Below the pieces are notes generated by a model that saw only the letters and a program-made list of their open reading frames with translations, did not search any database and was not told the origin of the DNA. From the IMG/VR virus record IMGVR_UViG_3300020733_000019, positions 1-57,674 of that record: a DNA stretch of 57,674 nt. One strand, written 5' to 3'. Source of the stretch: a virus (taxonomy: Duplodnaviria > Caudoviricetes). Position numbers and translations under genes: made by a program. Shown one piece after another: positions 7,811-41,487 of this stretch. Position 1 is the stretch's first letter; each line of letters starts with the position of its first letter.

Positions 7811-7830
7811 TATTTAGCTAGCGATAAATA
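7811..7830. promoter_or_regulatory. Back-to-back divergent late promoters (CTAAATA on minus for gp13; ATAAATA on plus for gp14)
   Basis: TATTTA-gctagcga-TAAATA in the short gap between the divergent genes. Confidence 0.75.
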
Positions 7831-7838
7831 TGTTTACT

Positions 7839-9299: not shown

Positions 9300-10765
9300 T
9301 GCAATGGTTTTATGACGGACAAATAAGAAGATATCTTACACAAACAATTCGTATTTTTAGTAATTTTGTGGTAAAGTACGGTGACGGATCCTTGCATCAG
9401 ATTCCTGTATTATACGGTGATGCTGATCGTCAAGTTTCTAGTATTTTAAATCGTAATTCAGAAAACAGTATTAGTAATGTTCCTCGTATTTCTGTTTATA
9501 TTACTGGACTTGAATTAGATCGTAATAGATTAGCTGATCAAACTTACGTAGGTAAACTTAATTTTAGAGAACGTGATATTAATGGATCCGGTGCATACAC
9601 TTCGGCACAGGGTCGTAATTATACAGTAGAACGCTTGATGCCTACTCCGTATACACTAAAAATGAAATGTGATATTTGGGCATCAAGCACAGATCAAAAA
9701 TTGCAAATTCTTGAGCAGATACTAGTGTTGTTTAATCCTAGTCTAGAATTACAAACTACTGACAACTATATTGACTGGACCAGTTTAAGTGTATTAAACT
9801 TAACTGATGTCAGTTGGTCAAGCCGACAAGTTCCGCAGGGCACTGACACAGCTATTGATGTTGCTAGTCTTACATTAGATTCGCCAATATGGATCAGTCC
9901 TCCAGTTAAGGTTAAACATCTTGGTGTTATTACTAAAGTTATTACCAGCGTTTATGGATCAGAGGGAACATATCCAGCTGGCTACATTGATGGTTTAGGC
10001 ATTGATCCTGCACTACAAAGTGACGCTGGCAGTCCTAATTTTAGTGATCTATTGCTTACAGAAGCTACTACAATTACTGGATATACAATACAAGTCTATA
10101 ACGGACAAGCTAGACTATATCTAGCATCAGATGGTGTTGTGCCGATAGAGCCAACTCTGAGTATTCCAACTAGTACAGGGACTCCGCTAGATTGGAGTCA
10201 ACTATTTGCACAATATCCGGGGCAATATATAGCAGGGTCTAGTCAAGTTTATCTGCAACAACCTAGCGGTAATTATGTAATAGGTACTATTGCTGTTAAT
10301 AGTTTAGATCCTACACTATTACAAATTAATTATAATCCAGACACATACCCTAGCAACACAGGTATTGACAGCAACGGATTTTTAAGTACAGATACTCAAC
10401 ATTATAGTGCCTCAATTAGCTATCGTCCTAATAGCCCAGGCACATTTGATGCTATCATTAATCCACAGACCTACACACCTACCAATCCTACAGCAGGCAC
10501 ACGCTACCTTATAATAGAAGATGTAGGTAGTAGTACCAACGCTAACCCTTCAACTGTATGGGGAAGTTTAGTGGCTCACGCTAACGACATTATAGAATAT
10601 AGCGGTACTGCATGGCATGTTATCTTTAATAGTAATCAAGAACACGATACTATGATATGGCAGACGAATATATACACTGGAGTTCAATACAAATGGAACG
10701 GAGTTTCATGGGTAAAGAGCTTTGAAGGTGAATATACGTCTGACTTATGGAAAATAATACTGTAA
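9299..10765 (+). CDS. gp15: Tail sheath stabiliser / tail terminator (T4 gp15-like) with extra C-terminal domains
   Basis: FYD.QIRRY......FSN, IPV.YG, PRIS..ITG...D..R, MPTPY.L....IW.....Q.LQILEQIL..FNP motifs. Confidence 0.88.
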   Translation: MQWFYDGQIRRYLTQTIRIFSNFVVKYGDGSLHQIPVLYGDADRQVSSILNRNSENSISNVPRISVYITGLELDRNRLADQTYVGKLNFRERDINGSGAYTSAQGRNYTVERLMPTPYTLKMKCDIWASSTDQKLQILEQILVLFNPSLELQTTDNYIDWTSLSVLNLTDVSWSSRQVPQGTDTAIDVASLTLDSPIWISPPVKVKHLGVITKVITSVYGSEGTYPAGYIDGLGIDPALQSDAGSPNFSDLLLTEATTITGYTIQVYNGQARLYLASDGVVPIEPTLSIPTSTGTPLDWSQLFAQYPGQYIAGSSQVYLQQPSGNYVIGTIAVNSLDPTLLQINYNPDTYPSNTGIDSNGFLSTDTQHYSASISYRPNSPGTFDAIINPQTYTPTNPTAGTRYLIIEDVGSSTNANPSTVWGSLVAHANDIIEYSGTAWHVIFNSNQEHDTMIWQTNIYTGVQYKWNGVSWVKSFEGEYTSDLWKIIL

Positions 10766-11196
10766 AAGAACCTATAGTTTGTAGCGGAGCATTATTCTAC
10801 GCTAAATCTACACGACGTTTCCTACTATTACAGAAAGCACACGGCAAACACGAAGGTACCTGGGGGCTTGTAGGTGGGACCAATATCCAAGGCGAGACTC
10901 CTTGGCAGGGTTTACAACGTGAAATTACTGAAGAAATTGGTAGTCACCCAAAAATAATTAAGACAATTCCCCTTGAGACGTTTGTATCAAACGATCGTGT
11001 GTTTAATTTTCATACTTATCTGTGCGTAATAGAATCTGAATTTGTACCCGTGTTAAGTGACGAACACAATGGCTGGGCGTGGGCAGTCATTGACAGAGCT
11101 CCAAAACCTCTGCACCAGGGACTTAGAAATAGTTTTTCAAGTAAAACTATTCGTACAAAATTACAGACTGTATTTGACCTAGTTGATTTAATTTAA
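10747..11196 (+). CDS. NUDIX hydrolase
   Basis: Nudix box WGLVGG....GETPWQGLQREITEEIG and downstream LSDEH..W.W. Confidence 0.92.
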   Translation: MENNTVKEPIVCSGALFYAKSTRRFLLLQKAHGKHEGTWGLVGGTNIQGETPWQGLQREITEEIGSHPKIIKTIPLETFVSNDRVFNFHTYLCVIESEFVPVLSDEHNGWAWAVIDRAPKPLHQGLRNSFSSKTIRTKLQTVFDLVDLI

Positions 11197-11207: not shown

Positions 11208-11543
11208 ATGCCAGTGTTAAGACCAGTTCATGATAGGTTACTTGTTAAAAGAATAGAACCAGAAAAAACTACAGCAGGCGGAATAGTAATTCCAGTTGCA
11301 TCGCAGGATGAAAAAACATCAAAGGGTGTGATTGTTGCGGCAGGGCCTGGAAAATATTCTGAAAAAACAGGAATATTAATCCCAATGTCTGTTAAAGTAG
11401 GTGACGAAATAATGTTTCATCCTGCTGCCGGATCAAAAATTACCGTAGGCGGTGAAGCATATTGGTGTATGCCTGAGAGTGATGCATGGTGTGTAATTGA
11501 TCCAGATGAGCCCGTTGGCCCTGTTGAATTTAAATTTGATTAA
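11208..11543 (+). CDS. groES: Co-chaperonin GroES (Cpn10)
   Basis: LRPVHDRLLVKR...EKTTAGGIVIP...G.IVAAGPG...PMSVKVGD signature; AAGGAG RBS. Confidence 0.95.
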   Translation: MPVLRPVHDRLLVKRIEPEKTTAGGIVIPVASQDEKTSKGVIVAAGPGKYSEKTGILIPMSVKVGDEIMFHPAAGSKITVGGEAYWCMPESDAWCVIDPDEPVGPVEFKFD

Positions 11544-11550
11544 TTTTTAA

Positions 11551-12108
11551 ATGACTAATAAAGATCTATTAGATGCTAATAACTATTTTGTAGTGAAAGA
11601 TTTTATCCATCCTGATGCATTAACTGTTATTTCAAAAGAATTTAAAAAACATTGTATTAATACTTTTGCAAAACCTGATGATCAAGTTCCGGGATCACCG
11701 GCAGTGTATGGACATCCGCTAGTAGATAAAATCCTAATTTCAAAAATATTTTATATGAATGATCTAATAGGTGAAAGATTATATCCAACCTATTGTTACG
11801 GACGGTGGTATAAAAAAGGTGCAGAATTGCCTGCACATTTAGATGCAGAAGCATGTGAAATAAGTGTTACACTTAATATTAGTGGAGATGCCTGGCCAAT
11901 TTTTATTAAGAAGCCAGATGGTACACCTGCTAGTATTACTCTATCACCCGGCGAAGCTATGATTTACAAGGGAATGACTGCCGAGCACTGGAGAGAAAAA
12001 TTTGAAGGGACTGAGTGCATACAAGTATTTTTACACTATGTTAAAATCTTTGGTGCTAATTATTTTCAAGCATTTGATTTGAGACGTAACCCGGCAGGTC
12101 CTATATGA
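11551..12108 (+). CDS. Fe(II)/2-oxoglutarate-dependent oxygenase (HxD type)
   Basis: Y.R.Y..G..L..HLD...CEISVTL...L.PG.A.IY.G....HWRE...QVFLHY double-stranded beta-helix pattern. Confidence 0.82.
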   Translation: MTNKDLLDANNYFVVKDFIHPDALTVISKEFKKHCINTFAKPDDQVPGSPAVYGHPLVDKILISKIFYMNDLIGERLYPTYCYGRWYKKGAELPAHLDAEACEISVTLNISGDAWPIFIKKPDGTPASITLSPGEAMIYKGMTAEHWREKFEGTECIQVFLHYVKIFGANYFQAFDLRRNPAGPI

Positions 12109-12701
12109 TACAATATCATTTTCCTACAGCAATTCTAACAGAATTTCATCCTATTACAGCCAAAGCTATGCTACCTGTAGCAAGGAAGTATCTAGATGAT
12201 TCAAAGATAGCTAGCACCAAATGGGGATATACTACAACCTATGGATTTGAAAATCCAGGAGGTATCGCTTATATGCCGGATGTAGAACCTTTTAGAATTC
12301 TTATAGAAAAAACAGGAAGAAAATATCTTCATGATTTAGGATATGATAGTAAAGGTATAGAATTTTTTTCATTTGTATTTGTAAGCGAGATGTTTGAAGG
12401 TGCCTCTCATGATGAACATACTCATCCCGAATCTATATTATCGGGTTTATTATACTTACAAGTACCGCCGGGATCTTCTTCATTAATATTAACTGATCCT
12501 AGACCATTTAGAGATTTTGTACACATACCAAAATTAGATAACAAACCAACTAGTACTAATGTTTCGGAATTGACAATAGAACCTAAAAATGGTTTGCTAT
12601 TAATGTGGGAATCATGGTTGCCGCACCTTGTACCTAAAACTAAAAATAAAGATAATGGCCGCATTACTATGGTTTTTAATATTTGTAGGAAATCAGCATG
12701 A
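12105..12701 (+). CDS. Putative Fe(II)/2OG oxygenase, TIGR02466-like (HxH type)
   Basis: FPT.I N-terminus, HTHP.S.LSG..YL, L.DPR, W.SWL.H.V, RI...FNI. Confidence 0.85.
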   Translation: MIQYHFPTAILTEFHPITAKAMLPVARKYLDDSKIASTKWGYTTTYGFENPGGIAYMPDVEPFRILIEKTGRKYLHDLGYDSKGIEFFSFVFVSEMFEGASHDEHTHPESILSGLLYLQVPPGSSSLILTDPRPFRDFVHIPKLDNKPTSTNVSELTIEPKNGLLLMWESWLPHLVPKTKNKDNGRITMVFNICRKSA

Positions 12702-13399
12702 GTAATTTTTTTAAATTTGATAAAGATAACCATCCCTTAGCTGGAACTATAGTATGTAAAAATGATTTCTTTAATAATCCTCAAAAAATTATTGAACTTT
12801 CTAAAAAACAAACATACAATGGGTCCGAAAGATGGCCGGGAAAAAGAACTGATAATTTATTAGAATCTGTAGATCCTGAAAGCAGAGATTTTGCTGTATT
12901 TTTTGCTAAAAAATTAGGCACTGAAGTATTTCCAGGCATTAGTAGATTTAACACTCATATTAGCTTTCACATAAATGATGTATACGACGACGAAGCTTCA
13001 AATGAAGGGTGGATACATAATGATGATGTTACTCTCGCTGGATTAGTTTATCTTACCCCCAACGAAGCCAATTTTAATAACGGAACCTCAATTTTTTTAA
13101 AAAAAGGTGAGCAAGATTTTAGAAATACTGATTATCGATCTAGAAAAGATTTTAATCTTACTAAGATCGCTACTGAGCAATATAAAAAAGATTTAGCTAT
13201 GAATCATAGAAATTTTGAAGAGACTGTGCGATTTGGAAATTTGTTTAATAGATTAATTGCATATGATTCAAATTTGTGGCATAGGCCCAATAACTATAAA
13301 ACTAATACAACTTTTCCTAGAACGACTTTATTATTCTTTATTGATTTTTATGAATATGAATTTCCTAGCCTGTCAGTTGCTAGCAAGTGGGTAGATTAA
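12698..13399 (+). CDS. Putative Fe(II)/2OG oxygenase (HxD type)
   Basis: DFF.NP..I, WPG.RT, GWIHND...AGLVYL, GTS, FNRLI.YD...WH, R.T..FF. Confidence 0.8.
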   Translation: MSNFFKFDKDNHPLAGTIVCKNDFFNNPQKIIELSKKQTYNGSERWPGKRTDNLLESVDPESRDFAVFFAKKLGTEVFPGISRFNTHISFHINDVYDDEASNEGWIHNDDVTLAGLVYLTPNEANFNNGTSIFLKKGEQDFRNTDYRSRKDFNLTKIATEQYKKDLAMNHRNFEETVRFGNLFNRLIAYDSNLWHRPNNYKTNTTFPRTTLLFFIDFYEYEFPSLSVASKWVD

Positions 13400-13400
13400 T

Positions 13401-14042
13401 ATGTCTGAAATTGTAAACATTCCATTATTTCCAGTGCCGTTATTTAAACTGAAAGTAACTAATCACGAAAAGATTAAAAAATATTTAATGGATACCATTC
13501 ATCCACATTTCTTAAAGAATGAAATAAACGACAAATATGCCAATGTATATACTGATTATATTCCAGGAGCAGTAAAAGCTCCTTGGAAAATGCTGAATAA
13601 ATTTTATGAAGAAGATATAGAAGAATTTTTAAAAGCCACAGGAATAGATTTTAGCAAAGGATGGAGTTATAAATTTACCTGCTGGTATGGTATGATGACT
13701 GAAACTAAAAATTCTTTAGTACACGATCACACAGGAGGTCCAAGCACTATACAATGGTCAGGAGTCCATTATGTAGTACTAGATACAGATAAAGACAGCG
13801 GCGGAACTATATTTAATAATCCAAATGCTCGCATGATGAAGGGTGTTATTCCTACAAAAAATACTAGCAAAATTCCAGACCTTTATCGACCAAATGATCA
13901 GCAATGCATAGTTGAAGAAGGAGATTTAGTAATGTTTCCATCTTGGTTAGACCATCGCACTCCTGATCATTCAGGCTCGTTACGAGTTATAGTTGCTATG
14001 AATATTATGTTAAAATATACTGGTGAGATTGAGGGATATTAA
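13401..14042 (+). CDS. Putative Fe(II)/2OG oxygenase, TIGR02466-like (HDH)
   Basis: LFP.P, HDH...WSGVHY, T.F.NP, EEGDL.MFPSWL.H, RV.VAMNI. Confidence 0.82.
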   Translation: MSEIVNIPLFPVPLFKLKVTNHEKIKKYLMDTIHPHFLKNEINDKYANVYTDYIPGAVKAPWKMLNKFYEEDIEEFLKATGIDFSKGWSYKFTCWYGMMTETKNSLVHDHTGGPSTIQWSGVHYVVLDTDKDSGGTIFNNPNARMMKGVIPTKNTSKIPDLYRPNDQQCIVEEGDLVMFPSWLDHRTPDHSGSLRVIVAMNIMLKYTGEIEGY

Positions 14043-14045
14043 CCT

Positions 14046-14672
14046 ATGATAGTAGTAGATCGTATACCTATTTTTAGTACAGATATTTTTAAAATTAAAT
14101 TATCTAACCACAATAAAATTAAAAAATACCTAATGGATAATGTATACCCTGGGTTTTTAAAAGACGGGCCTAATGATCCCGTACAAAATGTATATACAGA
14201 TTCATCGGTATTTAAACAATCATCAATAAAAGTTCCGTGGAAAATGTTATCTAAGTTTTATGAAGATGATGTTTGGGAAGTCTTAAAAACTATAGGAGTA
14301 ACAAAAGATGATTGGAGTCTTGATTTAGGGTGTTGGTACGGATTTACAACGGAAAGTCTTTCAGAATTTGTACATGATCATTCAGGCGGTCCTAATAATT
14401 ATCAATTTGGTGCTGTACATTATGTAACGCTTGATACCGAATCATCTGGTACTGTGTTTGTAGATCCGTGTTCTAAACAAATAAAATCAGCTTTACCAAC
14501 TAATAGCCCTTCTCTTTGCCCTGACTATTTTGCTCCAACTAAAAGAGCTCCGGCAGTACAGGAAGGTGATTTTATCATGTTTCCTGCATGGCTTGATCAT
14601 CATGTTCCTAAACATACTAACGGAACACTACGGGTAGTCGTAGTTATGAATATTATGATTCGAACTATTTAA
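14046..14672 (+). CDS. Putative Fe(II)/2OG oxygenase, tandem paralogue of 13401-14042
   Basis: Shares NH.KIKKYLMD...P.FLK, PWKML.KFYE.D, HDH.GGP, MFP.WLDH and LRV.V.MNIM with the previous gene. Confidence 0.82.
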   Translation: MIVVDRIPIFSTDIFKIKLSNHNKIKKYLMDNVYPGFLKDGPNDPVQNVYTDSSVFKQSSIKVPWKMLSKFYEDDVWEVLKTIGVTKDDWSLDLGCWYGFTTESLSEFVHDHSGGPNNYQFGAVHYVTLDTESSGTVFVDPCSKQIKSALPTNSPSLCPDYFAPTKRAPAVQEGDFIMFPAWLDHHVPKHTNGTLRVVVVMNIMIRTI

Positions 14673-14705
14673 TAATCACTATTAAAATCTAAAAACTGTA
14701 GAAAT

Positions 14706-14713
14706 TATAAGTA
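14706..14713 (+). promoter_or_regulatory. Probable late promoter variant (TATAAGTA) inside the oxygenase array
   Basis: One mismatch to TATAAATA, in the only sizeable gap of the array, 5 nt before ATG 14719. Confidence 0.55.
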
Positions 14714-14718
14714 TAAAC

Positions 14719-15393
14719 ATGTCAGCTGTCAATCTTCCAAATGTTGGTTTTTTAATTGAGGATTTGAATCCTTTTGTATTTCAGCGAATAAAAAAAGAGG
14801 TACTTGTACATAAACAAGACTTTGAAGCAACAGAATCATTAGAAACGTCAAAGGATCTTTTACGAGCGTTCCATAAAAGAAAATTAGGCTATACAAAAGA
14901 TTATCAACTTTCTCCAGAGACAGAAGCAGTGTTTATGAAGGAAGTTTTTAAATTTGTTGATTTATTTGATCAGAAGTTTGCCTACGCTGGCAAAATGTTT
15001 AATTATACAGTTAATGTAGAAAATGTAGAAACTACGTTAGAGCTAGAAAGAATTTGGTTAAATTTTCAACGGCCTGGAGAGTTTTTACCTTTACATAATC
15101 ATTCGGGATTATACAGTTTTGTACTTTGGGTTAATATACCATTTGATAATAAAAATGAAAAAGATAACGAACCAAATCCTACATTAATTAAAAATAGAAC
15201 TAGTAATTTTGAATTTGTATATATTGATGCTTTAGGAAAATTAAGCAATCACGCTCTATATGTGGATAAAAAATGGGAAGGTAGAATGGCTATTTTTCCA
15301 GCAGATTTATATCATCAAGTGTATCCATATTATTCTACAGATGATACTAGAATTTCCCTAGCTGGTAATTTAAGGTTAAAAATTGTATCATGA
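14719..15393 (+). CDS. Putative Fe(II)/2OG oxygenase (HNH metal triad)
   Basis: WLNFQRPGEF.PLHNHSG..SFV.W..IP, FEF.Y, EG....FP..L.H.VYP, RIS..GN. Confidence 0.8.
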   Translation: MSAVNLPNVGFLIEDLNPFVFQRIKKEVLVHKQDFEATESLETSKDLLRAFHKRKLGYTKDYQLSPETEAVFMKEVFKFVDLFDQKFAYAGKMFNYTVNVENVETTLELERIWLNFQRPGEFLPLHNHSGLYSFVLWVNIPFDNKNEKDNEPNPTLIKNRTSNFEFVYIDALGKLSNHALYVDKKWEGRMAIFPADLYHQVYPYYSTDDTRISLAGNLRLKIVS

Positions 15394-15986
15394 ACTTTGA
15401 AAAATATGAGTTTATGGGATTTATTGGGGTATTTGAAAATTACTTTAAGAATTCTTATTTTCAAGAAGTAATTAATTACTACGACTCAATATCAAAAATG
15501 CCGTTGCATTCTCAGGATAACACTCCTAAACATTGGAAAGATGACGAGCAATTATATTTGTTAGATCCTAGAGTTATTGTTACATTAAATCCAGAATATG
15601 TAAATCATTTTTTAGAAATACTTTGGGGTAAAATATTTCCCCTGTATGCAGAAAAGTTTAGTATACTACAGGAAAAATCTTATAAAGTAGAACAGATCAA
15701 AATGAAAAGAATAGAGCCGGGTGGAGGATTTCATCAATGGCACTATGAAGCATTAGGACATGATTCTAGAAGACGGCTAGTAGTTCAGTTATATATGAAC
15801 GATATTTCTGATGCAGGCGAAACTGAATTTCTATACCAGAACACTAGAATTATACCAAAAAAGAACAAATTATTAATATGGCCAGCTGACTGGACTCATA
15901 CACATCGGGGTAACCCACCTATCGGGAATACTAACAAATATATTTTAACCACATGGCTGGTAGAAGCAGATGAAGATAAAATTTAA
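15390..15986 (+). CDS. Fe(II)/2OG oxygenase, prolyl-4-hydroxylase-like (HxE)
   Basis: GGGFH.WHYE, R.LV...Y.ND...GETEFLYQ, LLIWPA.WTH.HRGNPP...KYI.T.W. Confidence 0.88.
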   Translation: MNFEKYEFMGFIGVFENYFKNSYFQEVINYYDSISKMPLHSQDNTPKHWKDDEQLYLLDPRVIVTLNPEYVNHFLEILWGKIFPLYAEKFSILQEKSYKVEQIKMKRIEPGGGFHQWHYEALGHDSRRRLVVQLYMNDISDAGETEFLYQNTRIIPKKNKLLIWPADWTHTHRGNPPIGNTNKYILTTWLVEADEDKI

Positions 15987-16722
15987 CATAGATGATGAAC
16001 TAGCTTTAAAGCATTGGCCGCCCGTGCCTGCCAAGGATTATCTGCCAGATTGGTATTCTAACATGCCAAAGGCTCAAGAAACTTATAGTTACGACGAGGC
16101 TGCTATAAAAAGTATTAGAGCATGTGTACCTGTAGAAGATTTTTTAACTGCTGGATATATTCTCAAAGCAACTTTTGAACATAGGGTTTCGGAAGCCGTA
16201 GTTGATTTTAAACCCCAGATGAGTATACAAACTGCTAGAAAAACTGAAGATGATCCTCGATTCGAAGAAAGAAAAAAGAAAGCAGGACCCGCAGAATCAT
16301 ATGGATTACATCCAGACGGGCCATTGGGAATCTACAGCGAAGCTATGTGCCCCATGCGTTCTCAAGGTAAAAAAACTCAGGGAAATTATTTTAGATTTGA
16401 ATCTCCTTGGTCGGTACGCACTCCTCCAGGATATAGTTGCTTAGTTATGCAACCTTATTACTTATTTGATCAAAATGTCAATATTATGCCTGCTATAATT
16501 GATACAGATAAATTTGACAAACGAATTCCTGTTGTAGGGTTTCTTACAGGTAAATCAAAAGAAGTAAGATTTTTCGCAGGAGATCCTTTACTGCAAATTA
16601 TTCCTTTTAAACGAGACGAATGGGAATCTGAATTTACCACTGGGCCAATACTTAATAAATCTAAATTCTTTTTATTCAATGCTTACAAACGTATTTTTCA
16701 TTCACCTAAGAGATTTAAATGA
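15970..16722 (+). CDS. Conserved hypothetical protein, paralogue 1 of 3 (possible dUTPase-like beta fold)
   Basis: P.PA...LP.W...MP, I..C.PV.D.LT.GYI, PW...TPPGYS.L...P, PAIIDTD, GDPL.Q.IPFKR. Confidence 0.7.
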   Translation: MKIKFNIDDELALKHWPPVPAKDYLPDWYSNMPKAQETYSYDEAAIKSIRACVPVEDFLTAGYILKATFEHRVSEAVVDFKPQMSIQTARKTEDDPRFEERKKKAGPAESYGLHPDGPLGIYSEAMCPMRSQGKKTQGNYFRFESPWSVRTPPGYSCLVMQPYYLFDQNVNIMPAIIDTDKFDKRIPVVGFLTGKSKEVRFFAGDPLLQIIPFKRDEWESEFTTGPILNKSKFFLFNAYKRIFHSPKRFK

Positions 16723-17420
16723 CCAATTTAATAACATTTGCAACTAGTGATCGTGAAACATTAGAAATGTTTCCTGTATTACCTGCATCAAAACTAATTC
16801 CTGAATGGTTTAAAGACATGCCTGTAGAGGTAGATGCATATATGGACGTAGTAGTACCCCATACTCCGACTATAAAAAGATGTATGCCAGTATTAGATTA
16901 CTTGACTACTGGTTATATTATTCGTGCTTCACATGAAATACAAATTAAAAAAGAAGTAGACGAACATTTTTTTAATTCTTTTAGATTTCGTAGTCGAGAA
17001 AATCACAAAGTTGTAGCAAAACATCCTCACCAGCAAGCCCAATTTTCAGAAGATGGCGAAAAAAGTCACTATCTTAAAATTCATCAACCTTGGTATATTA
17101 AGACACCACCGGGATATAGTGTCATGATATTTGATCCATTTTATCATTTTAGAAAAGAATTTAAAATTTTTCCAGGAGTTGTTGACACTGACAAGCACGA
17201 CGAAGTAATAGGGCTCGTGGCATTAGTTAAAGAAAAAGAGTTTATTATTAAACCGGGTGATCCGCTAGTAGTAGTATTTCCTTTTAAACGAAATGATTGG
17301 ACTATGAACACAGAATTTCGAGATAATGAGTATGAAAAGTCTAGTTTTAAATATAGACTTAGTACATACTGGGCCGGATTATATGCCAATTTAATGCATT
17401 CTAAAAAAACTTATAGATAA
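16719..17420 (+). CDS. Conserved hypothetical protein, paralogue 2 of 3
   Basis: Same motif set: IPEWFK.MP, TIKRCMPV.D.LTTGYI, PW.IKTPPGYS, PGVVDTD, GDPL...FPFKR. Confidence 0.7.
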   Translation: MTNLITFATSDRETLEMFPVLPASKLIPEWFKDMPVEVDAYMDVVVPHTPTIKRCMPVLDYLTTGYIIRASHEIQIKKEVDEHFFNSFRFRSRENHKVVAKHPHQQAQFSEDGEKSHYLKIHQPWYIKTPPGYSVMIFDPFYHFRKEFKIFPGVVDTDKHDEVIGLVALVKEKEFIIKPGDPLVVVFPFKRNDWTMNTEFRDNEYEKSSFKYRLSTYWAGLYANLMHSKKTYR

Positions 17421-17421
17421 T

Positions 17422-18114
17422 ATGTTTACATTTTTTAACAAAAAATCTAAAATTGTATTAGATTGTTTTACATTTGTACCGGAGATAGCAACTCTATTTC
17501 CAATAATACATGCAGAAGACCGTATTCCTCCGTTTTGGAAAAATTTGCCAACTGTTGTAAAACATTCCGGCATCAGTAGAGGCACTATGAGAACTTGCCC
17601 AGGGGTTAGTTCATTATTTAGAACTGGATTCATTTTACAAAACTGGTCAGATTGTTGGATTAGCACCGAGAATGATAAGTTAACATGGTTTCCCGAAAAT
17701 GCAGGCGAACAGCATAACCCTAAACAATGGGGAGAATATCTTAAAAATTATCATCACTTAAAACTAGTTAGCCCGTGGAGGATACAAGAAAAAAGTGGTG
17801 TTAATTTTCTTTATACAAACTGTTTTTGGCACGACGACAATTTCAAACCTTTTGTAGTTAACGGGATGGTTGAATACAAATATCAATCAACTACTAGCGT
17901 AAACATGCTAATTCCAAAAACAATGTTTCCAAAAGATTTAACTATTCCGGCCGGTCAAGAATTAGCTCATATAGTCCCAATGTCTGAAAAGGACATTGAG
18001 ATTAAAATGCATACTATATCTAGAACAGAATATGAAAATCTAGGATCGTACACATTCTCGTTTAATGGACAATACTTTAAACGCAAAAAGTTATTAAAAG
18101 AGCAGGGTCTATGA
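17422..18114 (+). CDS. Conserved hypothetical protein, divergent paralogue 3 of 3
   Basis: IP.FWK.LP, TMRTCPGV..L...GFIL, KL.SPW.I, G.V.Y, IPAG..LA..VP. Confidence 0.65.
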   Translation: MFTFFNKKSKIVLDCFTFVPEIATLFPIIHAEDRIPPFWKNLPTVVKHSGISRGTMRTCPGVSSLFRTGFILQNWSDCWISTENDKLTWFPENAGEQHNPKQWGEYLKNYHHLKLVSPWRIQEKSGVNFLYTNCFWHDDNFKPFVVNGMVEYKYQSTTSVNMLIPKTMFPKDLTIPAGQELAHIVPMSEKDIEIKMHTISRTEYENLGSYTFSFNGQYFKRKKLLKEQGL

Positions 18115-18740
18115 AAATACATTCATTGTTCCCAATTCCACTTTACGAACATCAAGGAACACAACAAGAAATATTTCTAATCCAGGACGAGATTAAAAAA
18201 AAATTATTAGAAATAGAACAAAAAGATACGTTTGAAAATCCCCCAGGGTGGGGCGATGGTGTCCAAACTAATATCAAAGCCAGACACAACTCTATAGATG
18301 ACTTTGAATTAGTGCATCTAAAAAGATATATCGAGTTACATGTTAAAAAATATATAGATGCTACACAATCATGGCATCCAGTTCCGATAGCCCTAAGGCA
18401 CAGTTGGATTAATAAAACGGGAAAAGATCAAGGACAAGATTGGCATCAGCATCAAGATTCATTTATTTCAGGTACATATTATTACCAAACCTCAGGAACT
18501 GACGGGGTATTTAGTATAATGAATCCTGTACCATACATGCAACAAGAGCTATTTCCGTTCGGTAATTTATCATATAAGAGCCACGATATTGTGCCAGCAG
18601 TTGGTAAGTTACTATTATTTCCCGGTTGGTTGATGCATTCTGTGGAAAAAAATAAAACTGAAAATATTCGTATCTCAATATCTTTTAATTTCCATAGAAA
18701 TCATTGGAGCGGCATCGCTCAAGATTCTACCTATATCTAA
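18111..18740 (+). CDS. Putative Fe(II)/2OG oxygenase, TIGR02466-like (HQH)
   Basis: LFPIP.Y, SWIN, HQH.DS.ISG.YY, P..G.LLLFP.WL.HSV..N.T...RISISFN. Confidence 0.87.
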   Translation: MKIHSLFPIPLYEHQGTQQEIFLIQDEIKKKLLEIEQKDTFENPPGWGDGVQTNIKARHNSIDDFELVHLKRYIELHVKKYIDATQSWHPVPIALRHSWINKTGKDQGQDWHQHQDSFISGTYYYQTSGTDGVFSIMNPVPYMQQELFPFGNLSYKSHDIVPAVGKLLLFPGWLMHSVEKNKTENIRISISFNFHRNHWSGIAQDSTYI

Positions 18741-18750
18741 AACTCGACCA

Positions 18751-18757
18751 CTAAATA
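18751..18757 (+). promoter_or_regulatory. Late promoter (CTAAATA) upstream of the halogenase sub-cluster
   Basis: Same box as before gp13 and before the 52235 gene; followed by a GAGG RBS and ATG 18779. Confidence 0.6.
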
Positions 18758-18778
18758 TTGAACCAAAGAGGATCACAC

Positions 18779-20398
18779 ATGAAAAAACCCATTAAACGAA
18801 TTATTATAGCAGGGGGCGGAAGCTCAGGTTGGATGTCTGCTGCCATGTTGTCTAAACAATTTCCTGACATGGAGATAGCATTAATTGAAAGTCCGGACAT
18901 TCCTATCATCGGCGTAGGCGAATCTACTTTGGGGACAATTAATCAATATCTAGGATTGCTTGGGATCAAAGATGAGGATTGGATGGAATACTGTAATGCT
19001 ACCTATAAATTAGCAATTAAATTTACAGATTTTTACGAAAAAGGTAAAGCATTTTACTATCCGTTTGGTCTAAAGGATCTTCAAAATACACAACAGGGTG
19101 CTACAGATTGGTATGTAAAAAAGACACTATATCCCGAAACCGACAATAATGACTTTTATGAAAGTCTTTATAGTTCAATGCCTATGATTTATCAGAGTAA
19201 AATATTTGATAATAAAGAAGGGCAATTACCGGGATTCAGCTGGAGAAATGATAGTGCTTATCATATGGATGCTACATTATTTGGCGAATTCTTAAAAGAA
19301 AAAATTTGTATTCCAAATGGAGTTGTGCATATTAGTGCAACTATCGAAGGAGTATTGCAAGAAGAAGACGGTTACGTTGCAGGTCTTAAACTCAGTAACG
19401 GTGATATAGTCGATGCTGATTTATATATTGACTGCACTGGATTTAAAAGTATATTGTTAGAACAAACTATGGGAGTAGAATTTGAATCATATTCTCCGCA
19501 TCTCCCTAACAACTATGCTTGGGTAACACATATTCCTTATATACACAAAGAAAGAGAAATGGAAAATGTTACAAACTGTACTGCTATAGAAAACGGCTGG
19601 GTTTGGAATATTCCGCTTTATGATAGAATTGGTAGCGGATATGTATTTTGCGACAAATTTATTTCTAAAGAAGAAGCTCTAGAAGAATACAAAAGATATT
19701 TAAACAGTGATAAAATGGTTGTACATAATCCTGCTAGAAGTCAATTCTTAGAATTTAGGTTGATTGAAATTAAAAATGGTGTACATGATAAAGCATGGGA
19801 GAAAAATGTTGTAGGTGTAGGTCTCAGCTATGCATTTGTTGAGCCGTTAGAAAGTACAGGATTGCTAAGTGTTCAAGAAATGCTGTTAAAATTATGTGAA
19901 ACTTTGCATAATAAGCAAATAAACAAGATACATATTGATCATTTCAACTATATTACACACTATGTAATGGACAGTTTTAGAAATTTTGTAACTTATCATT
20001 ATGTATTTTCTTCAAGACGTGATACCCCATATTGGCAATATATCACTAGTCAAATTGAGATGGATCCATTGATGTTTGATCGTAAACTTAATGCAATACC
20101 TACAGCGGCTACCGATTTAGCTGTTAAATTATTGCAAACTCATCACATGCCCGGTGATCCAAGTATGGGTGGTATGCCTGATATACTAGTAGGAATGAAT
20201 GTTTTACCTACATCTAAAACACAATTAGATATTGTTCGTATGATCATGGATGCAAGACAAGGACAAAGTGTAGAATTTTATACTAGTCAAACACAGGATT
20301 ATTGGGATCAAAAGAAAGAGTATATCGAATCTTTAGTTGAAACAGCTCCGTCTCATTATCAATATCTAAAAGATAACATTTATCACGGAAGAGATTAA
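18779..20398 (+). CDS. Flavin-dependent halogenase, tryptophan-halogenase family (start revised to ATG 18779)
   Basis: GGGSSG FAD motif, IGVGEST, ATYKLAIKF (catalytic Lys position), AYH.DA, DCTGF, GWVWNIPL (WxWxIP), FVEPLESTG. Confidence 0.92.
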   Translation: MKKPIKRIIIAGGGSSGWMSAAMLSKQFPDMEIALIESPDIPIIGVGESTLGTINQYLGLLGIKDEDWMEYCNATYKLAIKFTDFYEKGKAFYYPFGLKDLQNTQQGATDWYVKKTLYPETDNNDFYESLYSSMPMIYQSKIFDNKEGQLPGFSWRNDSAYHMDATLFGEFLKEKICIPNGVVHISATIEGVLQEEDGYVAGLKLSNGDIVDADLYIDCTGFKSILLEQTMGVEFESYSPHLPNNYAWVTHIPYIHKEREMENVTNCTAIENGWVWNIPLYDRIGSGYVFCDKFISKEEALEEYKRYLNSDKMVVHNPARSQFLEFRLIEIKNGVHDKAWEKNVVGVGLSYAFVEPLESTGLLSVQEMLLKLCETLHNKQINKIHIDHFNYITHYVMDSFRNFVTYHYVFSSRRDTPYWQYITSQIEMDPLMFDRKLNAIPTAATDLAVKLLQTHHMPGDPSMGGMPDILVGMNVLPTSKTQLDIVRMIMDARQGQSVEFYTSQTQDYWDQKKEYIESLVETAPSHYQYLKDNIYHGRD

Positions 20399-20976
20399 TG
20401 ACTATGGAGTTTAAAAATGCTGATCGTAAAAAGACAGCACATAATTTGTATTGCGCTCCTATGCTTACTAAGGAGGAGTGCAATGAAATTATAAAAAACT
20501 CCAATAAATGGCTAGAAGGAACTGTTTTAAAATTTGGACAATTTATTAAAGTTAAAGAATATAGAAGTGTTCAGATTTGTAGAACTTCCGTCACAGAAGA
20601 GCTAGTAGATAAAATTTTTGTAACTGTTTTTAAAGTAAACACTGCAACATTTAGATTTCATTTAGACGGATATGACGAAAGAGATGTCCCAAATGTTTTA
20701 AAATATTCGGCAGATCGTGGGGATCATTATGTATGGCATACTGATTTAATTCCAGGTGATGCTGTTAGAAAATTATCGTTTACTATACAGTTGTCAGACC
20801 CATCCGAATATGACGGTGGTGATCTGGAATTTAGCCCTGGCACTACAGATCCAAATATAAGAAAACAAGGTATGATGACTATATTTCCGTCATATGCTAC
20901 TCATCGAGTTACTCCGGTTACTCGAGGAACAAGATATGCAATAGTAGGGTGGATTTATGGTCCCGAATTCAGGTAA
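20398..20976 (+). CDS. Fe(II)/2OG oxygenase, PKHD/prolyl-hydroxylase-like
   Basis: Y.WHTD, RKLSFTIQLSDP.EY.GGDLEF, IFPSY..HRVTPVTRGTRY.IVGW..GP. Confidence 0.92.
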   Translation: MTMEFKNADRKKTAHNLYCAPMLTKEECNEIIKNSNKWLEGTVLKFGQFIKVKEYRSVQICRTSVTEELVDKIFVTVFKVNTATFRFHLDGYDERDVPNVLKYSADRGDHYVWHTDLIPGDAVRKLSFTIQLSDPSEYDGGDLEFSPGTTDPNIRKQGMMTIFPSYATHRVTPVTRGTRYAIVGWIYGPEFR

Positions 20977-22171
20977 AAAATTTAGATTAGGTGTTATTGG
21001 AGCAGGTACTGCTGGAATAGTTAGTATCTCTCATATAATTCCTTGGCTTTCTAATAGCTGGGACGTAGTATCTATATACGATCCTAGCACTCCTATACTA
21101 GGCATAGGAGAAAGTACAAACCCTAATTTTTTATCAACTTTAGAATTTGGAACTGGCTTTAGAGAAACTGAAGACATTGAAAAATTAGAAGGCACACTTA
21201 AATTTGGAACAAAATATATAGGGTGGCGATCAGAAGATTGGATTAATCCTTTATTCGGTGCTGGACACGCATTACATTTTAATAATTTTAAATTAAAAGA
21301 GTTTGCATTTGAAAGATTTAAACAAAAATGGCCTGACAAATTTAAAGTTATTGAGGGTGCAGTTACATCTGTTACTAATGAATTTCAGTGTGTGCATGTT
21401 ATAGTTAATAATACTATTGAAAAATTTGATTACATTATAGACTGTAGAGGATTTCCTGAAGATTATTCAGATTATGAAATTAGTAATTGTTCTCCTTTAA
21501 ATCGATGTTTTGTCTATAGTACGCCATCGCACGTAACAGACCAGTTTCCATGTACCGAACATATTGCTACAAAACATGGTTGGACTTTTGGAATACCATT
21601 GTCGACTAGGCACACCTATGGATATTTGTTTAACGATACGATTAGCACTGAAGATCAAGTTATAAAGGACATGTCTGAAATGTTTTCAACAGATTTAAAA
21701 AAAGATAATCTAGTTGACTATAAGTTTAAATCATACTACAGTAAAAAAATCTTAAACAAACGTATATTAAAAAATGGAAATAGAGCATTATTTTTTGAAC
21801 CGTTGAGTGCAAGTAGTATTTTTTGTTATGTTGAAATTGCTGAGCTTTTTTTACATCATTTAAATAAAAATGAAAAATACAATGAATTTTTTGTAAATAC
21901 TGAATTTATTAAATTAGCCAAATCATTAGAAGACATGCTGTCATTTTTATATCACGGGGGCACTAATTACGATACAGAATTCTGGAGATTTGCTAAAGCA
22001 AGGGCAGTTGATCGATTAAATAACAGTAACGCATTTTCAGAAATCATTGTTGAATATAAAAAAATGTTTAAAAATGGAACACCGTTAACTGGAAAAAGTT
22101 GGTTTTTCTTACCTCACAATTTAAGAATTATCGACGAACAAATGAATTATAACTATTTTAAAGAACTATGA
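20957..22171 (+). CDS. Short, divergent tryptophan-halogenase-family flavoprotein
   Basis: GAGTAG, GIGEST, GTLKFG.K...W, ALHF, DCRGF, GWTFGIPL, GN...FFEPL. Confidence 0.82.
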   Translation: MVPNSGKKFRLGVIGAGTAGIVSISHIIPWLSNSWDVVSIYDPSTPILGIGESTNPNFLSTLEFGTGFRETEDIEKLEGTLKFGTKYIGWRSEDWINPLFGAGHALHFNNFKLKEFAFERFKQKWPDKFKVIEGAVTSVTNEFQCVHVIVNNTIEKFDYIIDCRGFPEDYSDYEISNCSPLNRCFVYSTPSHVTDQFPCTEHIATKHGWTFGIPLSTRHTYGYLFNDTISTEDQVIKDMSEMFSTDLKKDNLVDYKFKSYYSKKILNKRILKNGNRALFFEPLSASSIFCYVEIAELFLHHLNKNEKYNEFFVNTEFIKLAKSLEDMLSFLYHGGTNYDTEFWRFAKARAVDRLNNSNAFSEIIVEYKKMFKNGTPLTGKSWFFLPHNLRIIDEQMNYNYFKEL

Positions 22172-23793
22172 GAAAACCTATTGAAAAAATCGTAATAGTC
22201 GGTGGTGGTAGTGCTGGCTGGATGACAGCGGCATTGCTAACTAAGAAATTTCCAAATTTTAAATTTACATTAGTTGAAAGCCCCGATGTTCCAACTGTCG
22301 GTGTGGGCGAATCTACACTAGGTACATTAAATTTATTTTTACATTTATTAGACTTAGACGATAAAGAATGGATGGAATACTGTAACTGTACTTACAAGCT
22401 AAGTATAAAATTTACAGATTTTTATAAAGTAGGTGAAACATTTTACTATCCTTTTGGGCAAAAAGATAGAAAAACTACACTAGCCGGATTAACTGATTGG
22501 TATCACAAAAAATTATTGTACCCCGAGACTCCTTGGAATGATTTTTATGAGTGTGTATATAGCACAATGCCGTTAATCTATAACAACAAAATGTGCGACA
22601 ACATAACAACTCCTAAACTAGAAGGCTATAGTTTTAAAAATGATTCAGCATATCATATGGATGCCGCCTTATTGGCGCAATTTTTAAAAGAAAAGTATGC
22701 CATTCCTAGCGGGATGGAATATATACAACAACATGTAACTGACATTATTAAAGATGCAGACGGTTATTTAGATCACTTAGTATTAAAAAATGGTGAAACA
22801 GTAACTGGTGATTTGTTTATTGATTGTACAGGTTTTAAAAGTTTGTTGTTAGAACAAACTATGGGGGTGCCTTTTGAAAGTTTTAAAAAATGGCTTCCTA
22901 ATGACCATGCTTGGACATGCCATGTTCCGTATCACGATAAAGAACTCGAAATGGAAAATGTTACAAATTGCACAGCTTATAACAATGGTTGGGTATGGAA
23001 CATTCCATTATATCATCGTATTGGCAGCGGGTATGTTTTTAGTAGTGATTTTATTAGTATAGAAGATGCACTAGAAGAATATAAACAATATCTTAACAGT
23101 GATAAGATGACTTATCATGATTCGCACCGAGCTGATAATTTAGAATTTAGATTAGTCAAGATTAAAAACGGAACTCATAACAAGTGTTGGGAAAAGAATG
23201 TTGTAGGAGTAGGTTTAAGTTATGCGTTTATTGAACCTCTGGAAAGTACAGGCCTATTCAGTGTAACAGAAATATTAGAACTATTGTATCAGATTCTAGA
23301 CAACGAACAAATAACAAAAATGCACGAAGATTGGTTTAATCGCGAAGCTAATTTACTCATGCAGTCTTTTAAATGTTTTGTTACATACCATTATGTGTTA
23401 AGTTCTCGAAAAGATACACCTTATTGGAAACATGTTACTGAAAACATAGAAATGGATAAAAGACTAATTGATAAACAGTTGGCAGAACTACATACTATGA
23501 CAGCTGAACTAGGTAATAAATTGTTTAATGAACATGAACTTGGTGCAAATATGGGAGGTCTTCCTGATATATTTGTAGGAAATCATTTACTACCAGTTAA
23601 CAGAATGTCATTAGAAAAAATTAAATATGACGGACTATATACAATACCCGGGCAAAGTATGATTCCAGAAATTCTTAAAAAAGAAACACTTCAATACTGG
23701 GCTCAGAAAAAGATTAAAAATGAACTTGTGGCAGCTAAGTGTCCAAGTCATTATCAATATTTAAGACAAACATATCATAACGGTAAGGAATAA
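22168..23793 (+). CDS. Flavin-dependent halogenase, close paralogue of 18779-20398
   Basis: GGGSAG, VGVGEST, CTYKLSIKF, GWVWNIPL, FIEPLESTG; long identical peptide runs with halogenase 1. Confidence 0.92.
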   Translation: MRKPIEKIVIVGGGSAGWMTAALLTKKFPNFKFTLVESPDVPTVGVGESTLGTLNLFLHLLDLDDKEWMEYCNCTYKLSIKFTDFYKVGETFYYPFGQKDRKTTLAGLTDWYHKKLLYPETPWNDFYECVYSTMPLIYNNKMCDNITTPKLEGYSFKNDSAYHMDAALLAQFLKEKYAIPSGMEYIQQHVTDIIKDADGYLDHLVLKNGETVTGDLFIDCTGFKSLLLEQTMGVPFESFKKWLPNDHAWTCHVPYHDKELEMENVTNCTAYNNGWVWNIPLYHRIGSGYVFSSDFISIEDALEEYKQYLNSDKMTYHDSHRADNLEFRLVKIKNGTHNKCWEKNVVGVGLSYAFIEPLESTGLFSVTEILELLYQILDNEQITKMHEDWFNREANLLMQSFKCFVTYHYVLSSRKDTPYWKHVTENIEMDKRLIDKQLAELHTMTAELGNKLFNEHELGANMGGLPDIFVGNHLLPVNRMSLEKIKYDGLYTIPGQSMIPEILKKETLQYWAQKKIKNELVAAKCPSHYQYLRQTYHNGKE

Positions 23794-23818
23794 AAAAAGC
23801 ACCCTAGGGTGCTTTTTT
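23793..23818. terminator. Bidirectional intrinsic terminator
   Basis: Perfect 26-bp palindrome AAAAAAGCACC-CTAG-GGTGCTTTTTT between convergent stop codons. Confidence 0.92.
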
Positions 23819-41479: not shown

Positions 41480-41487
41480 TATTTATA
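41480..41487 (-). promoter_or_regulatory. Perfect T4 late promoter TATAAATA
   Basis: Minus strand TATAAATA-ctatca-GAGG-...ATG of the 4353-aa gene. Confidence 0.85.

Follow-up and report, generated by a model that had tools for sequence, protein, structure and literature searches.

Organization of the cassette

The IMG/VR virus record IMGVR_UViG_3300020733_000019 was studied over its whole length of 57.7 kb (hereafter the window), which represents a fragment of the larger genome of a T4-like cyanomyovirus. The subject of this analysis is a cassette of 15 co-oriented open reading frames (ORFs) on its plus strand (11551-23793) that overlap each other or are separated by gaps of at most 46 nt. 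They code for nine 2-oxoglutarate (2OG)/Fe(II) oxygenases (A1-A7, A11 and A13), three VirX1-type halogenases (A12, A14 and A15) and three proteins with a dUTPase fold (A8-A10; Table 1). A previous reading of this DNA, made from its letters without database searches (the sequence-only reading), had described 15 contiguous co-oriented genes directly continuing a gp14-gp15-NUDIX-GroES unit, which agrees with the ORF coordinates, and had presented them as a candidate system for the tailoring of virion proteins. The array itself is not new: it is an enlarged freshwater version of the dioxygenase/halogenase cassette of cyanophage Syn9, a kind of cluster that was published in 2010 with a secondary-metabolite interpretation (PMC2938197). 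Near-identical DNA was found only in freshwater/lake metagenome runs, with no RNA run among them, and a megablast search of the cassette against isolate phages returned zero matches at the DNA level.

Eight of the nine oxygenases score above the Pfam gathering threshold (2OG-FeII_Oxy_5 five times, 2OG-FeII_Oxy_3 twice and DUF6445 once) and the ninth, A1, was recognized by its motif and its structural model, which bears out the number originally proposed. These proteins belong to at least four families (Oxy_5, Oxy_3, DUF6445 and prolyl 4-hydroxylase (P4H)-like) and all nine keep the metal ligands, the fold having been modelled for A1 and assigned on the basis of Pfam for the other eight. The Oxy_5 sequences conserve an H-x-H...H...R pattern. 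A1 has no match in Pfam and, like A3, none in NCBIfam; its family alignment contains an invariant H96-x-D98...H146 plus R148, and the best structural matches to its AlphaFold2 (AF2) model (predicted local distance difference test, pLDDT, 95.2) are prolyl-4-hydroxylases. The closest of them is the Pseudomonas putida enzyme PPHD, solved with EF-Tu (4IW3, 4J25; Foldseek 6e-10, TM 0.71-0.73), which shares 14-15% identity with A1. It is followed by PiuC, ectoine hydroxylase, HygX, the collagen P4H of the chlorella virus PBCV-1 (5C5T; 1.1e-7) and PHD2. By sequence, A13 matches PiuC (9e-8) and, along residues 4-186, the mimivirus-type procollagen lysyl hydroxylase 6AX6 (1.5e-5), in a window whose fibre proteins contain no collagen-like G-X-Y runs. 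The likeness to 5C5T and 6AX6 is at the level of the superfamily. The closest PDB entries to A11 are the uncharacterized marine-bacterial proteins 3bvc and 2rg4 only. Several of the oxygenases resemble protein prolyl or lysyl hydroxylases, A1 by its fold and A13 by its sequence. The hydroxylases of PBCV-1 and of the mimivirus type are a precedent for viral 2OG oxygenases that act on proteins. No JmjC or Cupin_8 domain scored above threshold in the 15 cassette genes, and none of the cassette oxygenases matched the AlkB or TET/JBP families of Pfam.

The database names of these families call for caution. The name "ferrochelatase" that PHROGs gives to the family of A1 (phrog_2954) was rejected as a misnomer, since its ligands and fold are those of a 2OG oxygenase. 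The PHROG families 2954, 3531, 1644, 274 and 2297, variously named "ferrochelatase", "minor coat protein" and "DNA endonuclease (V)", all match proteins with a 2OG oxygenase fold here, so that these names look like misnomers too, and the same names are carried in RefSeq by cassette genes of Syn9, S-RIM44 and P-TIM40.

The three predicted flavin-dependent halogenases do belong to PF04820. A12 and A15 are 40-41% identical to VirX1 from cyanophage Syn10 (PDB 6QGM) and resemble it over their full length (6.8e-121 for A12). Both contain the GxGxxG, Lys, WxWxIP and Glu motifs (the last two read GWVWNIPL and EPLES in A12), the definitions of which are partly taken from a review. The true start of A12 is the ATG at 18779 rather than the TTG at 18758, and its top protein match among isolate phages reaches 42%. 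A14 keeps GxGxxG, Lys and Glu, reads GWTFGIPL (WxFxIP instead of WxWxIP) and lacks a stretch of ~65 residues; judging from these features of its sequence, it is a compact form rather than a fragment, and it is 78% identical to its counterpart in a related locus (L003). When compared to NCBIfam, A15 gives very weak matches, far below cut-off, to QhpG and LodB, two flavoenzymes that modify tryptophan residues within proteins, and these matches can only be considered as a lead. The review passages that deal with VirX1 describe a large, open active site that accepts bulky substrates and do not name a natural one. Since all the cassette enzymes keep their catalytic residues, they are probably active.

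The three remaining genes had been regarded as unknown paralogues. They are indeed paralogous (23-29% pairwise identity) and share an invariant Cys (C55 in the alignment), but they are not without identifiable relatives. The AF2 model of A9 (pLDDT 87.8) aligns in VIA-align to the dUTPase 3t60_A (Z 11.0, root-mean-square deviation 2.5, 123 residues) and the first 22 rows of the results (Z 11.0-5.7) are made up of dUTPases, dCTP deaminases and herpesvirus proteins, the next row being at Z 4.6; the Foldseek match alone is weak (2e-3). A9 is also homologous to Syn9 gp43 (hhalign 98.9%, E 2.8e-17). It shares the fold of the trimeric dUTPases and dCTP deaminases but differs from them by its low identity (~10-18%), by additional residues that form a segment at the N-terminus and by a C-terminus that is helical, and the invariant Cys of A8-A10 is foreign to dUTPases. 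GVVDTD and PPGYS stretches are conserved in the three proteins; the former may resemble dUTPase motif III, and the Gly-rich C-terminal motif of dUTPases was not seen in them by inspection. A9 has no match in NCBIfam, and the clusters recovered from the ESM Atlas were all viral DUF6065 clusters. Among proteins 493-2000 residues long, no fusion of this domain to others was detected (E ≤1e-5), which is weak evidence.

In the passages devoted to it by Iyer, Abhiman, de Souza and Aravind (2010; PMC2938197), the Syn9 cluster contains ten tandem dioxygenases of at least five families, including the JmjC protein gp49, together with two tryptophan halogenases and a dUTPase-fold protein in which a Cys is conserved. 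The fold of A9, the invariant Cys and the homology to gp43 agree with this description, and the cassette thus belongs to the described kind. Both the window cassette and Syn9 gp40-gp54 combine tandem 2OG oxygenases of unrelated families, halogenases and a conserved-Cys dUTPase-fold protein next to fibre genes, with a P4H-like gene named "ferrochelatase" at the far end. Their arrangements differ: the window cassette prolongs the gp14-gp15-NUDIX-GroES unit and is convergent with the fibre genes, whereas that of Syn9 follows the fibre genes on the same strand. There are three dUTPase-fold genes here and one there, three halogenases here and two there, C1q-like neighbours here and Gly_rich_2 there, and the source here is freshwater. 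No JmjC gene was found in the window cassette, while Syn9 gp49 is a JmjC_2 protein; this JmjC/MINA-clade member varies between phages and was not taken as defining for a Syn9-type cassette.

Table 1 Features of the cassette and of its surroundings in the window
Feature	Position	Strand	Evidence and remarks
gp14-like neck gene	7830-9299	+	phrog_11591 1.7e-85; heads the plus strand unit
gp15 tail-sheath stabiliser	9299-10765	+	PF16724 T4-gp15_tss 9.5e-24
NUDIX hydrolase	10747-11196	+	PF00293 9.3e-14
Cpn10/GroES	11208-11543	+	PF00166 9.1e-26
A1, prolyl-4-hydroxylase-like 2OG oxygenase	11551-12108	+	phrog_2954 1.5e-52
A2, Oxy_5	12105-12701	+	Pfam above gathering score
A3, DUF6445	12698-13399	+	Pfam above gathering score; motif HND...H-R
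A4, Oxy_5	13401-14042	+	Pfam above gathering score
A5, Oxy_5	14046-14672	+	Pfam above gathering score
A6, Oxy_5	14719-15393	+	Pfam above gathering score
A7, 2OG-FeII_Oxy_3 (P4H/PKHD-type)	15390-15986	+	PF13640 7.9e-10; phrog_61 3.2e-32
A8, A9, A10, dUTPase-fold (DUF6065-like)	15970-18114	+	phrog_7084; weak DUF6065
A11, 2OG-FeII_Oxy_5/TIGR02466	18111-18740	+	PF13759 2.4e-19; TIGR02466 74.2 bits (cut-off 62.5)
Putative late-type box ACTAAATA	18750-18757	+	27 nt upstream of the halogenase 1 ATG; AAGAGG between
A12, halogenase 1, VirX1 type, 539 aa	18779-20398	+	PF04820 1.3e-108
A13, 2OG-FeII_Oxy_3	20398-20976	+	PF13640 9e-16
A14, compact halogenase, 404 aa	20957-22171	+	PF04820 2.9e-29
A15, halogenase 3, VirX1 type, 541 aa	22168-23793	+	PF04820 7.9e-109; motifs intact
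Bidirectional terminator hairpin	23793-23818		11-bp stem, flanking A and T runs
F0, 212 aa	23820-24458	-	own late-type box CATAAATA at -23; place kept in relatives
F1-F3, fibre-tip-like paralogues, 328, 318 and 314 aa	24479-27377	-	translations
Further fibre genes, 201 aa, 123 aa, giants of 4353 and 2820 aa	27389-49970	-	PHROGs

Association with fibre genes

The genes on which the cassette converges belong to the fibre side of the genome. F0 has no match in Pfam, PHROGs or NCBIfam and no similarity to Syn9 gp40. F1-F3 share the N-terminus MATYSSFK and have C-terminal heads in which His and Trp residues are invariant; these could be either modification sites or metal ligands such as those of the T4 fibre tips. 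A C1q match was obtained for F3 only (E 0.0071, 17 bits, below the Pfam cut-off of 23.7), and neither F1 nor F3 has a match in NCBIfam. Among the following genes, the "tail fiber protein" families phrog_31104 and phrog_9851 are matched at 2.5e-125 and 4.9e-125; the two giant fibre genes together span 28398-49970. The prediction of a complex between A9 and the C-terminal parts of F1, F2 and F3 scored 0.00 ("no answer") and bears neither way.

Six IMG/VR loci (L003 and L015-L019) were compared as relatives of the same lineage. In all six, the cassette converges on F0 and C1q-like genes, and F1-F3 have positional orthologues. The gene order starts with the P4H-like gene (in L015 and L016), followed by the oxygenases, the three dUTPase-fold genes and the halogenases, and then by the convergent F0 and C1q-like genes; gp14/gp15, NUDIX and GroES lie upstream in L015-L017, where the locus reaches that far. 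The cassette orthologues are 52-80% identical and their motifs are intact. Halogenases number three in the window, four in L003 and L015, three in L016, two in L017, one in L018 and two in L019. The dUTPase-fold genes are three in the window and in all six relatives, and the C1q-like genes are also three in the complete loci (the window, L003, L016, L018 and L019), the third being cut in L015 and at least one being present in L017, which is cut as well. Since the halogenases vary between one and four while the C1q-like genes remain fixed at three, there is no copy-number co-variation of the kind that the sequence-only reading had suggested to look for, and the dUTPase-fold and C1q-like genes, both fixed at three, do not provide such a test either. 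Moreover, the C1q-like proteins are confined to the lineage of the window, without any homologue in isolate phages, while the cassette is widespread, so the idea that the C1q tips specifically are the substrate is not supported.

Some further observations were made in this lineage. The number of F1-F3 proteins equals that of the dUTPase-fold genes in every genome in which the locus is complete, and the former may form a heterotrimer or three homotrimers. L003 contains an extra divergent halogenase among its Oxy_5 genes (1005-2213, ~28% identical to halogenases 1 and 3) that the window lacks, a gene labelled as halogenase by BLAST is found among the Oxy_5 genes of L015 and L016, and L017 has a JmjC-like gene, likewise known by its BLAST label only.

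Among isolates, 11 named phages were inspected from the 40 listed rows of halogenase matches, plus Syn10, which matches Syn9; S-H35, Sf-FP1, Sf-CH3, Sf-FR1, S-SCSM2R, S-H38 and a faecal record are left out of the count. In eight of the 11, the cassette comes after fibre and Gly_rich_2 genes and shares their strand (Syn9, S-CREM1, S-RIM44, P-TIM40, S-WAM1, P-RSM6, S-SZBM1 and Sf-CH11). The order in these isolates is fibre, Gly_rich_2 "fibre assembly" genes, a small ORF, one or more halogenases, the dUTPase-fold gene (checked in Syn9 only), the oxygenases and, where annotated, the P4H-like gene. In S-RIM44 and Sf-CH11 the cassette is located between the fibre genes and gp13-15, and Sf-CH11 carries Gly_rich_2 genes on both of its sides. 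The linkage to fibre genes on which the sequence-only reading depended is thus conserved in six of six lineage relatives and eight of 11 isolates, so that this check, by which that reading could have been refuted, does not refute it.

In the window, the minus strand between 2405 and 7792 carries two gp19-like tube genes, the gp18 sheath gene, a dNMP kinase located between gp18 and gp13, and gp13 itself, so that gp13, gp18 and gp19 are on the strand opposite to gp14 and gp15; unlike in the window, gp13, gp14 and gp15 share one direction in S-RIM44 and Sf-CH11. A NUDIX gene and a phage Cpn10/GroES gene are placed as a pair between gp15 and the cassette.

These comparisons bear on the possibility that the cassette does not correspond to any common pathway, but to independently useful accessory genes that accreted at a permissive spot, in which case their adjacency would be meaningless. 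The G+C content is lower across the cassette (0.315-0.349 between 12000 and 24000) than in both flanks (~0.37-0.41), the number of genes varies, as illustrated by the one to four halogenases of the relatives, and cyanomyoviruses have fixed hot-spots of flexible genes at gp16-gp17 or gp17-gp18 (Sullivan et al. 2010). Nevertheless, at least nine lineages of Kyanoviridae share the three kinds of enzymes, grouped together in a common order, the identity of the orthologues and their intact motifs imply selection and, according to the passages of PMC2938197 on this cluster, its dioxygenases are distant homologues that were assembled rather than recent duplicates. Accretion alone therefore seems improbable.

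The distribution of the dUTPase-fold family offers another view of the same question. A scan of viral contigs detected at least 589 loci of this family, and the best 80, which are biased towards relatives of the query, were analysed. According to BLAST labels, a 2OG oxygenase is encoded within four genes in 35 of these 80 loci and a halogenase in six. The 80 loci make up 34 clusters at 60% identity, four of which correspond to the lineage of the window; each of the remaining 30 was represented by a single locus, in which the neighbours were annotated with PHROGs (95 and 73 proteins), with unverified names, many short loci and counts that are not set against a formal null model. The neighbours within ~4-5 genes are tail-fibre, tail or virion-structural genes in 18 of these 30 clusters, replication, packaging or metabolic genes in eight, and not nameable in four. 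In five loci (L066, L031, L035, L056 and L089), the dUTPase-fold gene stands among fibre genes without any oxygenase or halogenase nearby; L066 is siphovirus-like, with a tape-measure gene, and L031 contains a podovirus-like module. In the haloarchaeal virus HRTV-24 (L013), it lies between adhesin/fibre genes and a ribonucleotide reductase, again with neither an oxygenase nor a halogenase in the vicinity. The family thus gives an independent hint towards fibre tailoring.

Alternatively, the dUTPase-fold, NUDIX and oxygenase/halogenase proteins could modify nucleotides or nucleic acids before packaging. This would suit the dUTPase fold of A8-A10 and its GVVDTD stretch, the NUDIX gene upstream, the nearby dNMP kinase, the eight clusters found among replication, packaging and metabolic genes and the AlkB label that JGI gives to some A1 homologues. 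Yet, A1 folds like a P4H, the Pfam families of AlkB and TET/JBP are not matched, and the Gly-rich motif of dUTPases was not seen. Syn9-like phages are not known to have been reported to contain hypermodified DNA. A role in nucleotide modification is thus very unlikely.

Promoter-like boxes and expression

The sequence-only reading had placed late-type boxes at three sites, of which one stands. In the review passage that reports it, the consensus of cyanophage late promoters is NATAAATA. The window contains a single exact TATAAATA, located at 41480 of the minus strand and 26 nt before the gene of the 4353-aa fibre; this motif is rarer than in shuffled sequences (mean 10.65). The looser box xxTAAATA is found at -40 to -20 of the start codon in five of 41 genes, compared to 0.35 expected, and at other 21-nt offsets in zero to two genes. 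The five boxed genes are gp18, gp13, F0, the giant fibre and halogenase 1 (A12), the first four being structural or from the fibre side. The box at 18750, before halogenase 1, has a C where the consensus has an A, but its spacing agrees with that of the other four, and a like box precedes the halogenase 1 orthologue in four of the six relatives (L003, L015, L016 and L017), none having been seen in L018 and L019. Because the box is enriched at that position upstream of genes, the one at 18750 is credible as a candidate late-type promoter. In all eight fibre-linked isolates, the unit containing the halogenase is also preceded by a late-type box, at -25 to -39, the chance expectation having been computed for the window only. 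The late-type signals that had been proposed thus recur, as motifs, in the window, in relatives and in isolates. The two other sites did not hold: the one near 7823 (GATAAATA) overlaps the ATG of gp14 and cannot serve that start as drawn, and the one at 14706 (TATAAACA) lies at -13 and fails as a late box.

Two other promoter-like elements were noticed. A late-type box precedes GroES in L016 and L017, and the window has none there. Within the cassette, the one intergenic gap of any size contains a perfect sigma-70 consensus on the minus strand (14732-14704; TTGACA, 17 nt, TATAAT, 12/12), which points antisense into the oxygenase genes; as a conserved element it was rejected, since it is not present in the six relatives.

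The terminator that the cassette was said to share with the fibre-side genes is indeed present, in the form of a hairpin that separates both convergent units. The scan did not find any convincing terminator inside the plus strand unit between gp14 and 23793, which makes read-through from the neck genes plausible. Judging from these motifs, transcription of the cassette probably takes place late: a T4-type late promoter of their own, at 18750, would drive the last four genes, and transcripts that start in the neck operon would extend through the others. The supplement of PMC7238727 contains orthologue lists and no expression class for the cassette genes.

The timing is relevant to the hypothesis of a host-directed action, in which the oxygenases would hydroxylate host translation or ribosomal proteins, or draw down 2OG and thereby affect nitrogen/energy signalling, and the halogenases would act on host molecules. 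The closest structure to A1 is that of PPHD, determined together with EF-Tu, the JmjC_2 protein gp49 of Syn9 is assigned to the ribosomal-oxygenase clade of MINA/NO66 in the relevant passage of PMC2938197, and a modulation of 2OG was proposed by Sullivan et al. (2010), who reported 2OG oxygenases in 14 of 16 cyanomyoviruses. Yet, the putative promoters are of the late type and not of the early one, nine diverse paralogues exceed what would be needed to draw down 2OG, and both the fibre linkage and the dUTPase-fold genes would remain unexplained. Such an action on the host is accordingly considered unlikely.

Possible substrates of the enzymes

The ORFs scanned in the 57.7 kb of this partial genome contain no nonribosomal peptide synthetase/polyketide synthase, transporter or flavin reductase, in agreement with the sequence-only reading, and no scaffold enzyme, precursor peptide or exporter was found among the ORFs with a minimum length of 90 aa, short precursor ORFs falling outside that search. 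The contig is only part of a larger genome and absence from the window is therefore not absence from the phage. With no scaffold-making enzyme in the window, the enzymes would have to tailor a ready-made substrate. One possibility is that this substrate is a free amino acid, a small peptide or a host metabolite, which would be converted into an organohalogen or a siderophore-like compound. Organohalogen secondary metabolites are the product proposed for the Syn9 cluster in PMC2938197, whose passages on the subject also mention bacterial neighbourhoods in which such dioxygenases and halogenases are associated with TonB receptors and peptide synthetases. In addition, the halogenases are closest to enzymes acting on free tryptophan, VirX1 takes free small molecules in vitro according to the passages that describe it, and small-molecule oxygenases are found among the fold matches of A1. 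Nevertheless, neither the window nor the loci of the relatives examined encode a synthetase, a precursor peptide, a carrier protein or an exporter, late-type promoters and a place within the virion module would be unusual for a metabolic moron, and the dUTPase-fold gene occurs among fibre genes even when no oxygenase is nearby. The tailoring of a secondary metabolite is thus possible but doubtful.

Alternatively, the ready-made substrate could be a virion protein. The tailoring of fibre or other virion proteins is the reading that we prefer, ahead of the metabolite, host, accretion and nucleotide hypotheses, with a probability of about one in three. The enzymes would then act on the side chains of a phage protein that is made by the ribosome and belongs to the tail-fibre module, either fibre tips or fibre-assembly proteins. 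The oxygenases would add hydroxyl groups to, for instance, Pro, Lys, Asn or His, the halogenases would use reduced flavin supplied by the host to modify Trp or Tyr, and the dUTPase-fold proteins would be a fibre-linked partner. Of the proposal originally made for this locus, the fibre linkage, the late-type boxes and the likeness to protein hydroxylases are retained, while the C1q tips and the co-variation are not supported. The open active site described for VirX1 also speaks for the fibre reading. A comparable logic is found in bacterial operons that, in a passage of PMC2938197, join 2OG dioxygenases of the beta-hydroxylase type with phage tail-collar/collagen-like proteins as proposed substrates; the sulfotransferases and 3'-phosphoadenosine-5'-phosphosulfate (PAPS) synthetases of these operons are absent here. 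In the corresponding passages, the tail-collar idea is not extended by its authors to the cyanophage cluster, and our search of the literature, as judged from listings and some passages, did not find any paper that proposes virion proteins as the substrate of the cassette. The functions of the cyanophage 2OG oxygenases have not been specifically studied, according to the 2022 genome paper on S-SCSM1.

Several points weigh against the fibre reading. No modified residue, transcript or contact between enzyme and substrate has been observed, the late timing is deduced from sequence motifs only, and two of the three late boxes first put forward fail. The scores of A1 for the small-molecule oxygenases EctD and HygX nearly equal those for protein hydroxylases. 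Collagen-like G-X-Y repeats are absent from all the fibre proteins of the window, and the fibre-side proteins differ by lineage, being C1q-like here and Gly_rich_2 in marine phages. A role in nucleotide chemistry would account better for the dUTPase fold and the NUDIX gene, eight of the 30 dUTPase-fold clusters have replication, packaging or metabolic neighbours, and the published interpretation, as given in the passages of PMC2938197, is that of secondary metabolites. Three of the 11 isolates carry their halogenase elsewhere: that of S-B64 is flanked by SbcC and a peptidase, close to recombination/replication genes, and those of S-MbCM6 and S-PM2, which are <30% identical, are found in the psbA/hli/nrdC region. 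S-SCSM1 carries 24 such oxygenases dispersed over its genome (2022 genome paper). Finally, since the core synteny of cyanomyoviruses is conservative, the steady adjacency to fibre genes may only mark a fixed insertion spot. Virion proteomes also bear on the question. Standard proteome searches would miss hydroxylated or halogenated peptides. The 45 proteins of the S-SCSM1 virion proteome include no 2OG oxygenase among those named in the passages that report it. In favour of the fibre reading, the S-SCSM2R virion preparation contained one, annotated as prolyl 3,4-dihydroxylase, which its authors, in the relevant passage, regarded as either virion-borne or simply abundant.

If the fibre reading were extended beyond this lineage, unrelated tailed phages would edit their own receptor-binding fibres late, and the dUTPase-fold protein would cooperate with the fibre genes and, in cyanophages, would have recruited oxygenases and VirX1-type halogenases to hydroxylate and halogenate residues of the fibre tips. 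This generalization is tentative and more doubtful than the fibre reading itself; if it were true, halogenated or hydroxylated adhesins would be the long-sought natural product of viral halogenases and would represent a new layer of host-range variation. To the cassette known from Syn9, the window adds a freshwater lineage, a different arrangement in which adjacency to the fibre genes is kept, and a dUTPase-fold component that is found alone beside fibre genes in unrelated phages. If the enzymes do decorate fibres, the host range of these viruses would depend on post-translational chemistry in addition to fibre sequence, and the VirX1-type enzymes would be protein-editing tools.

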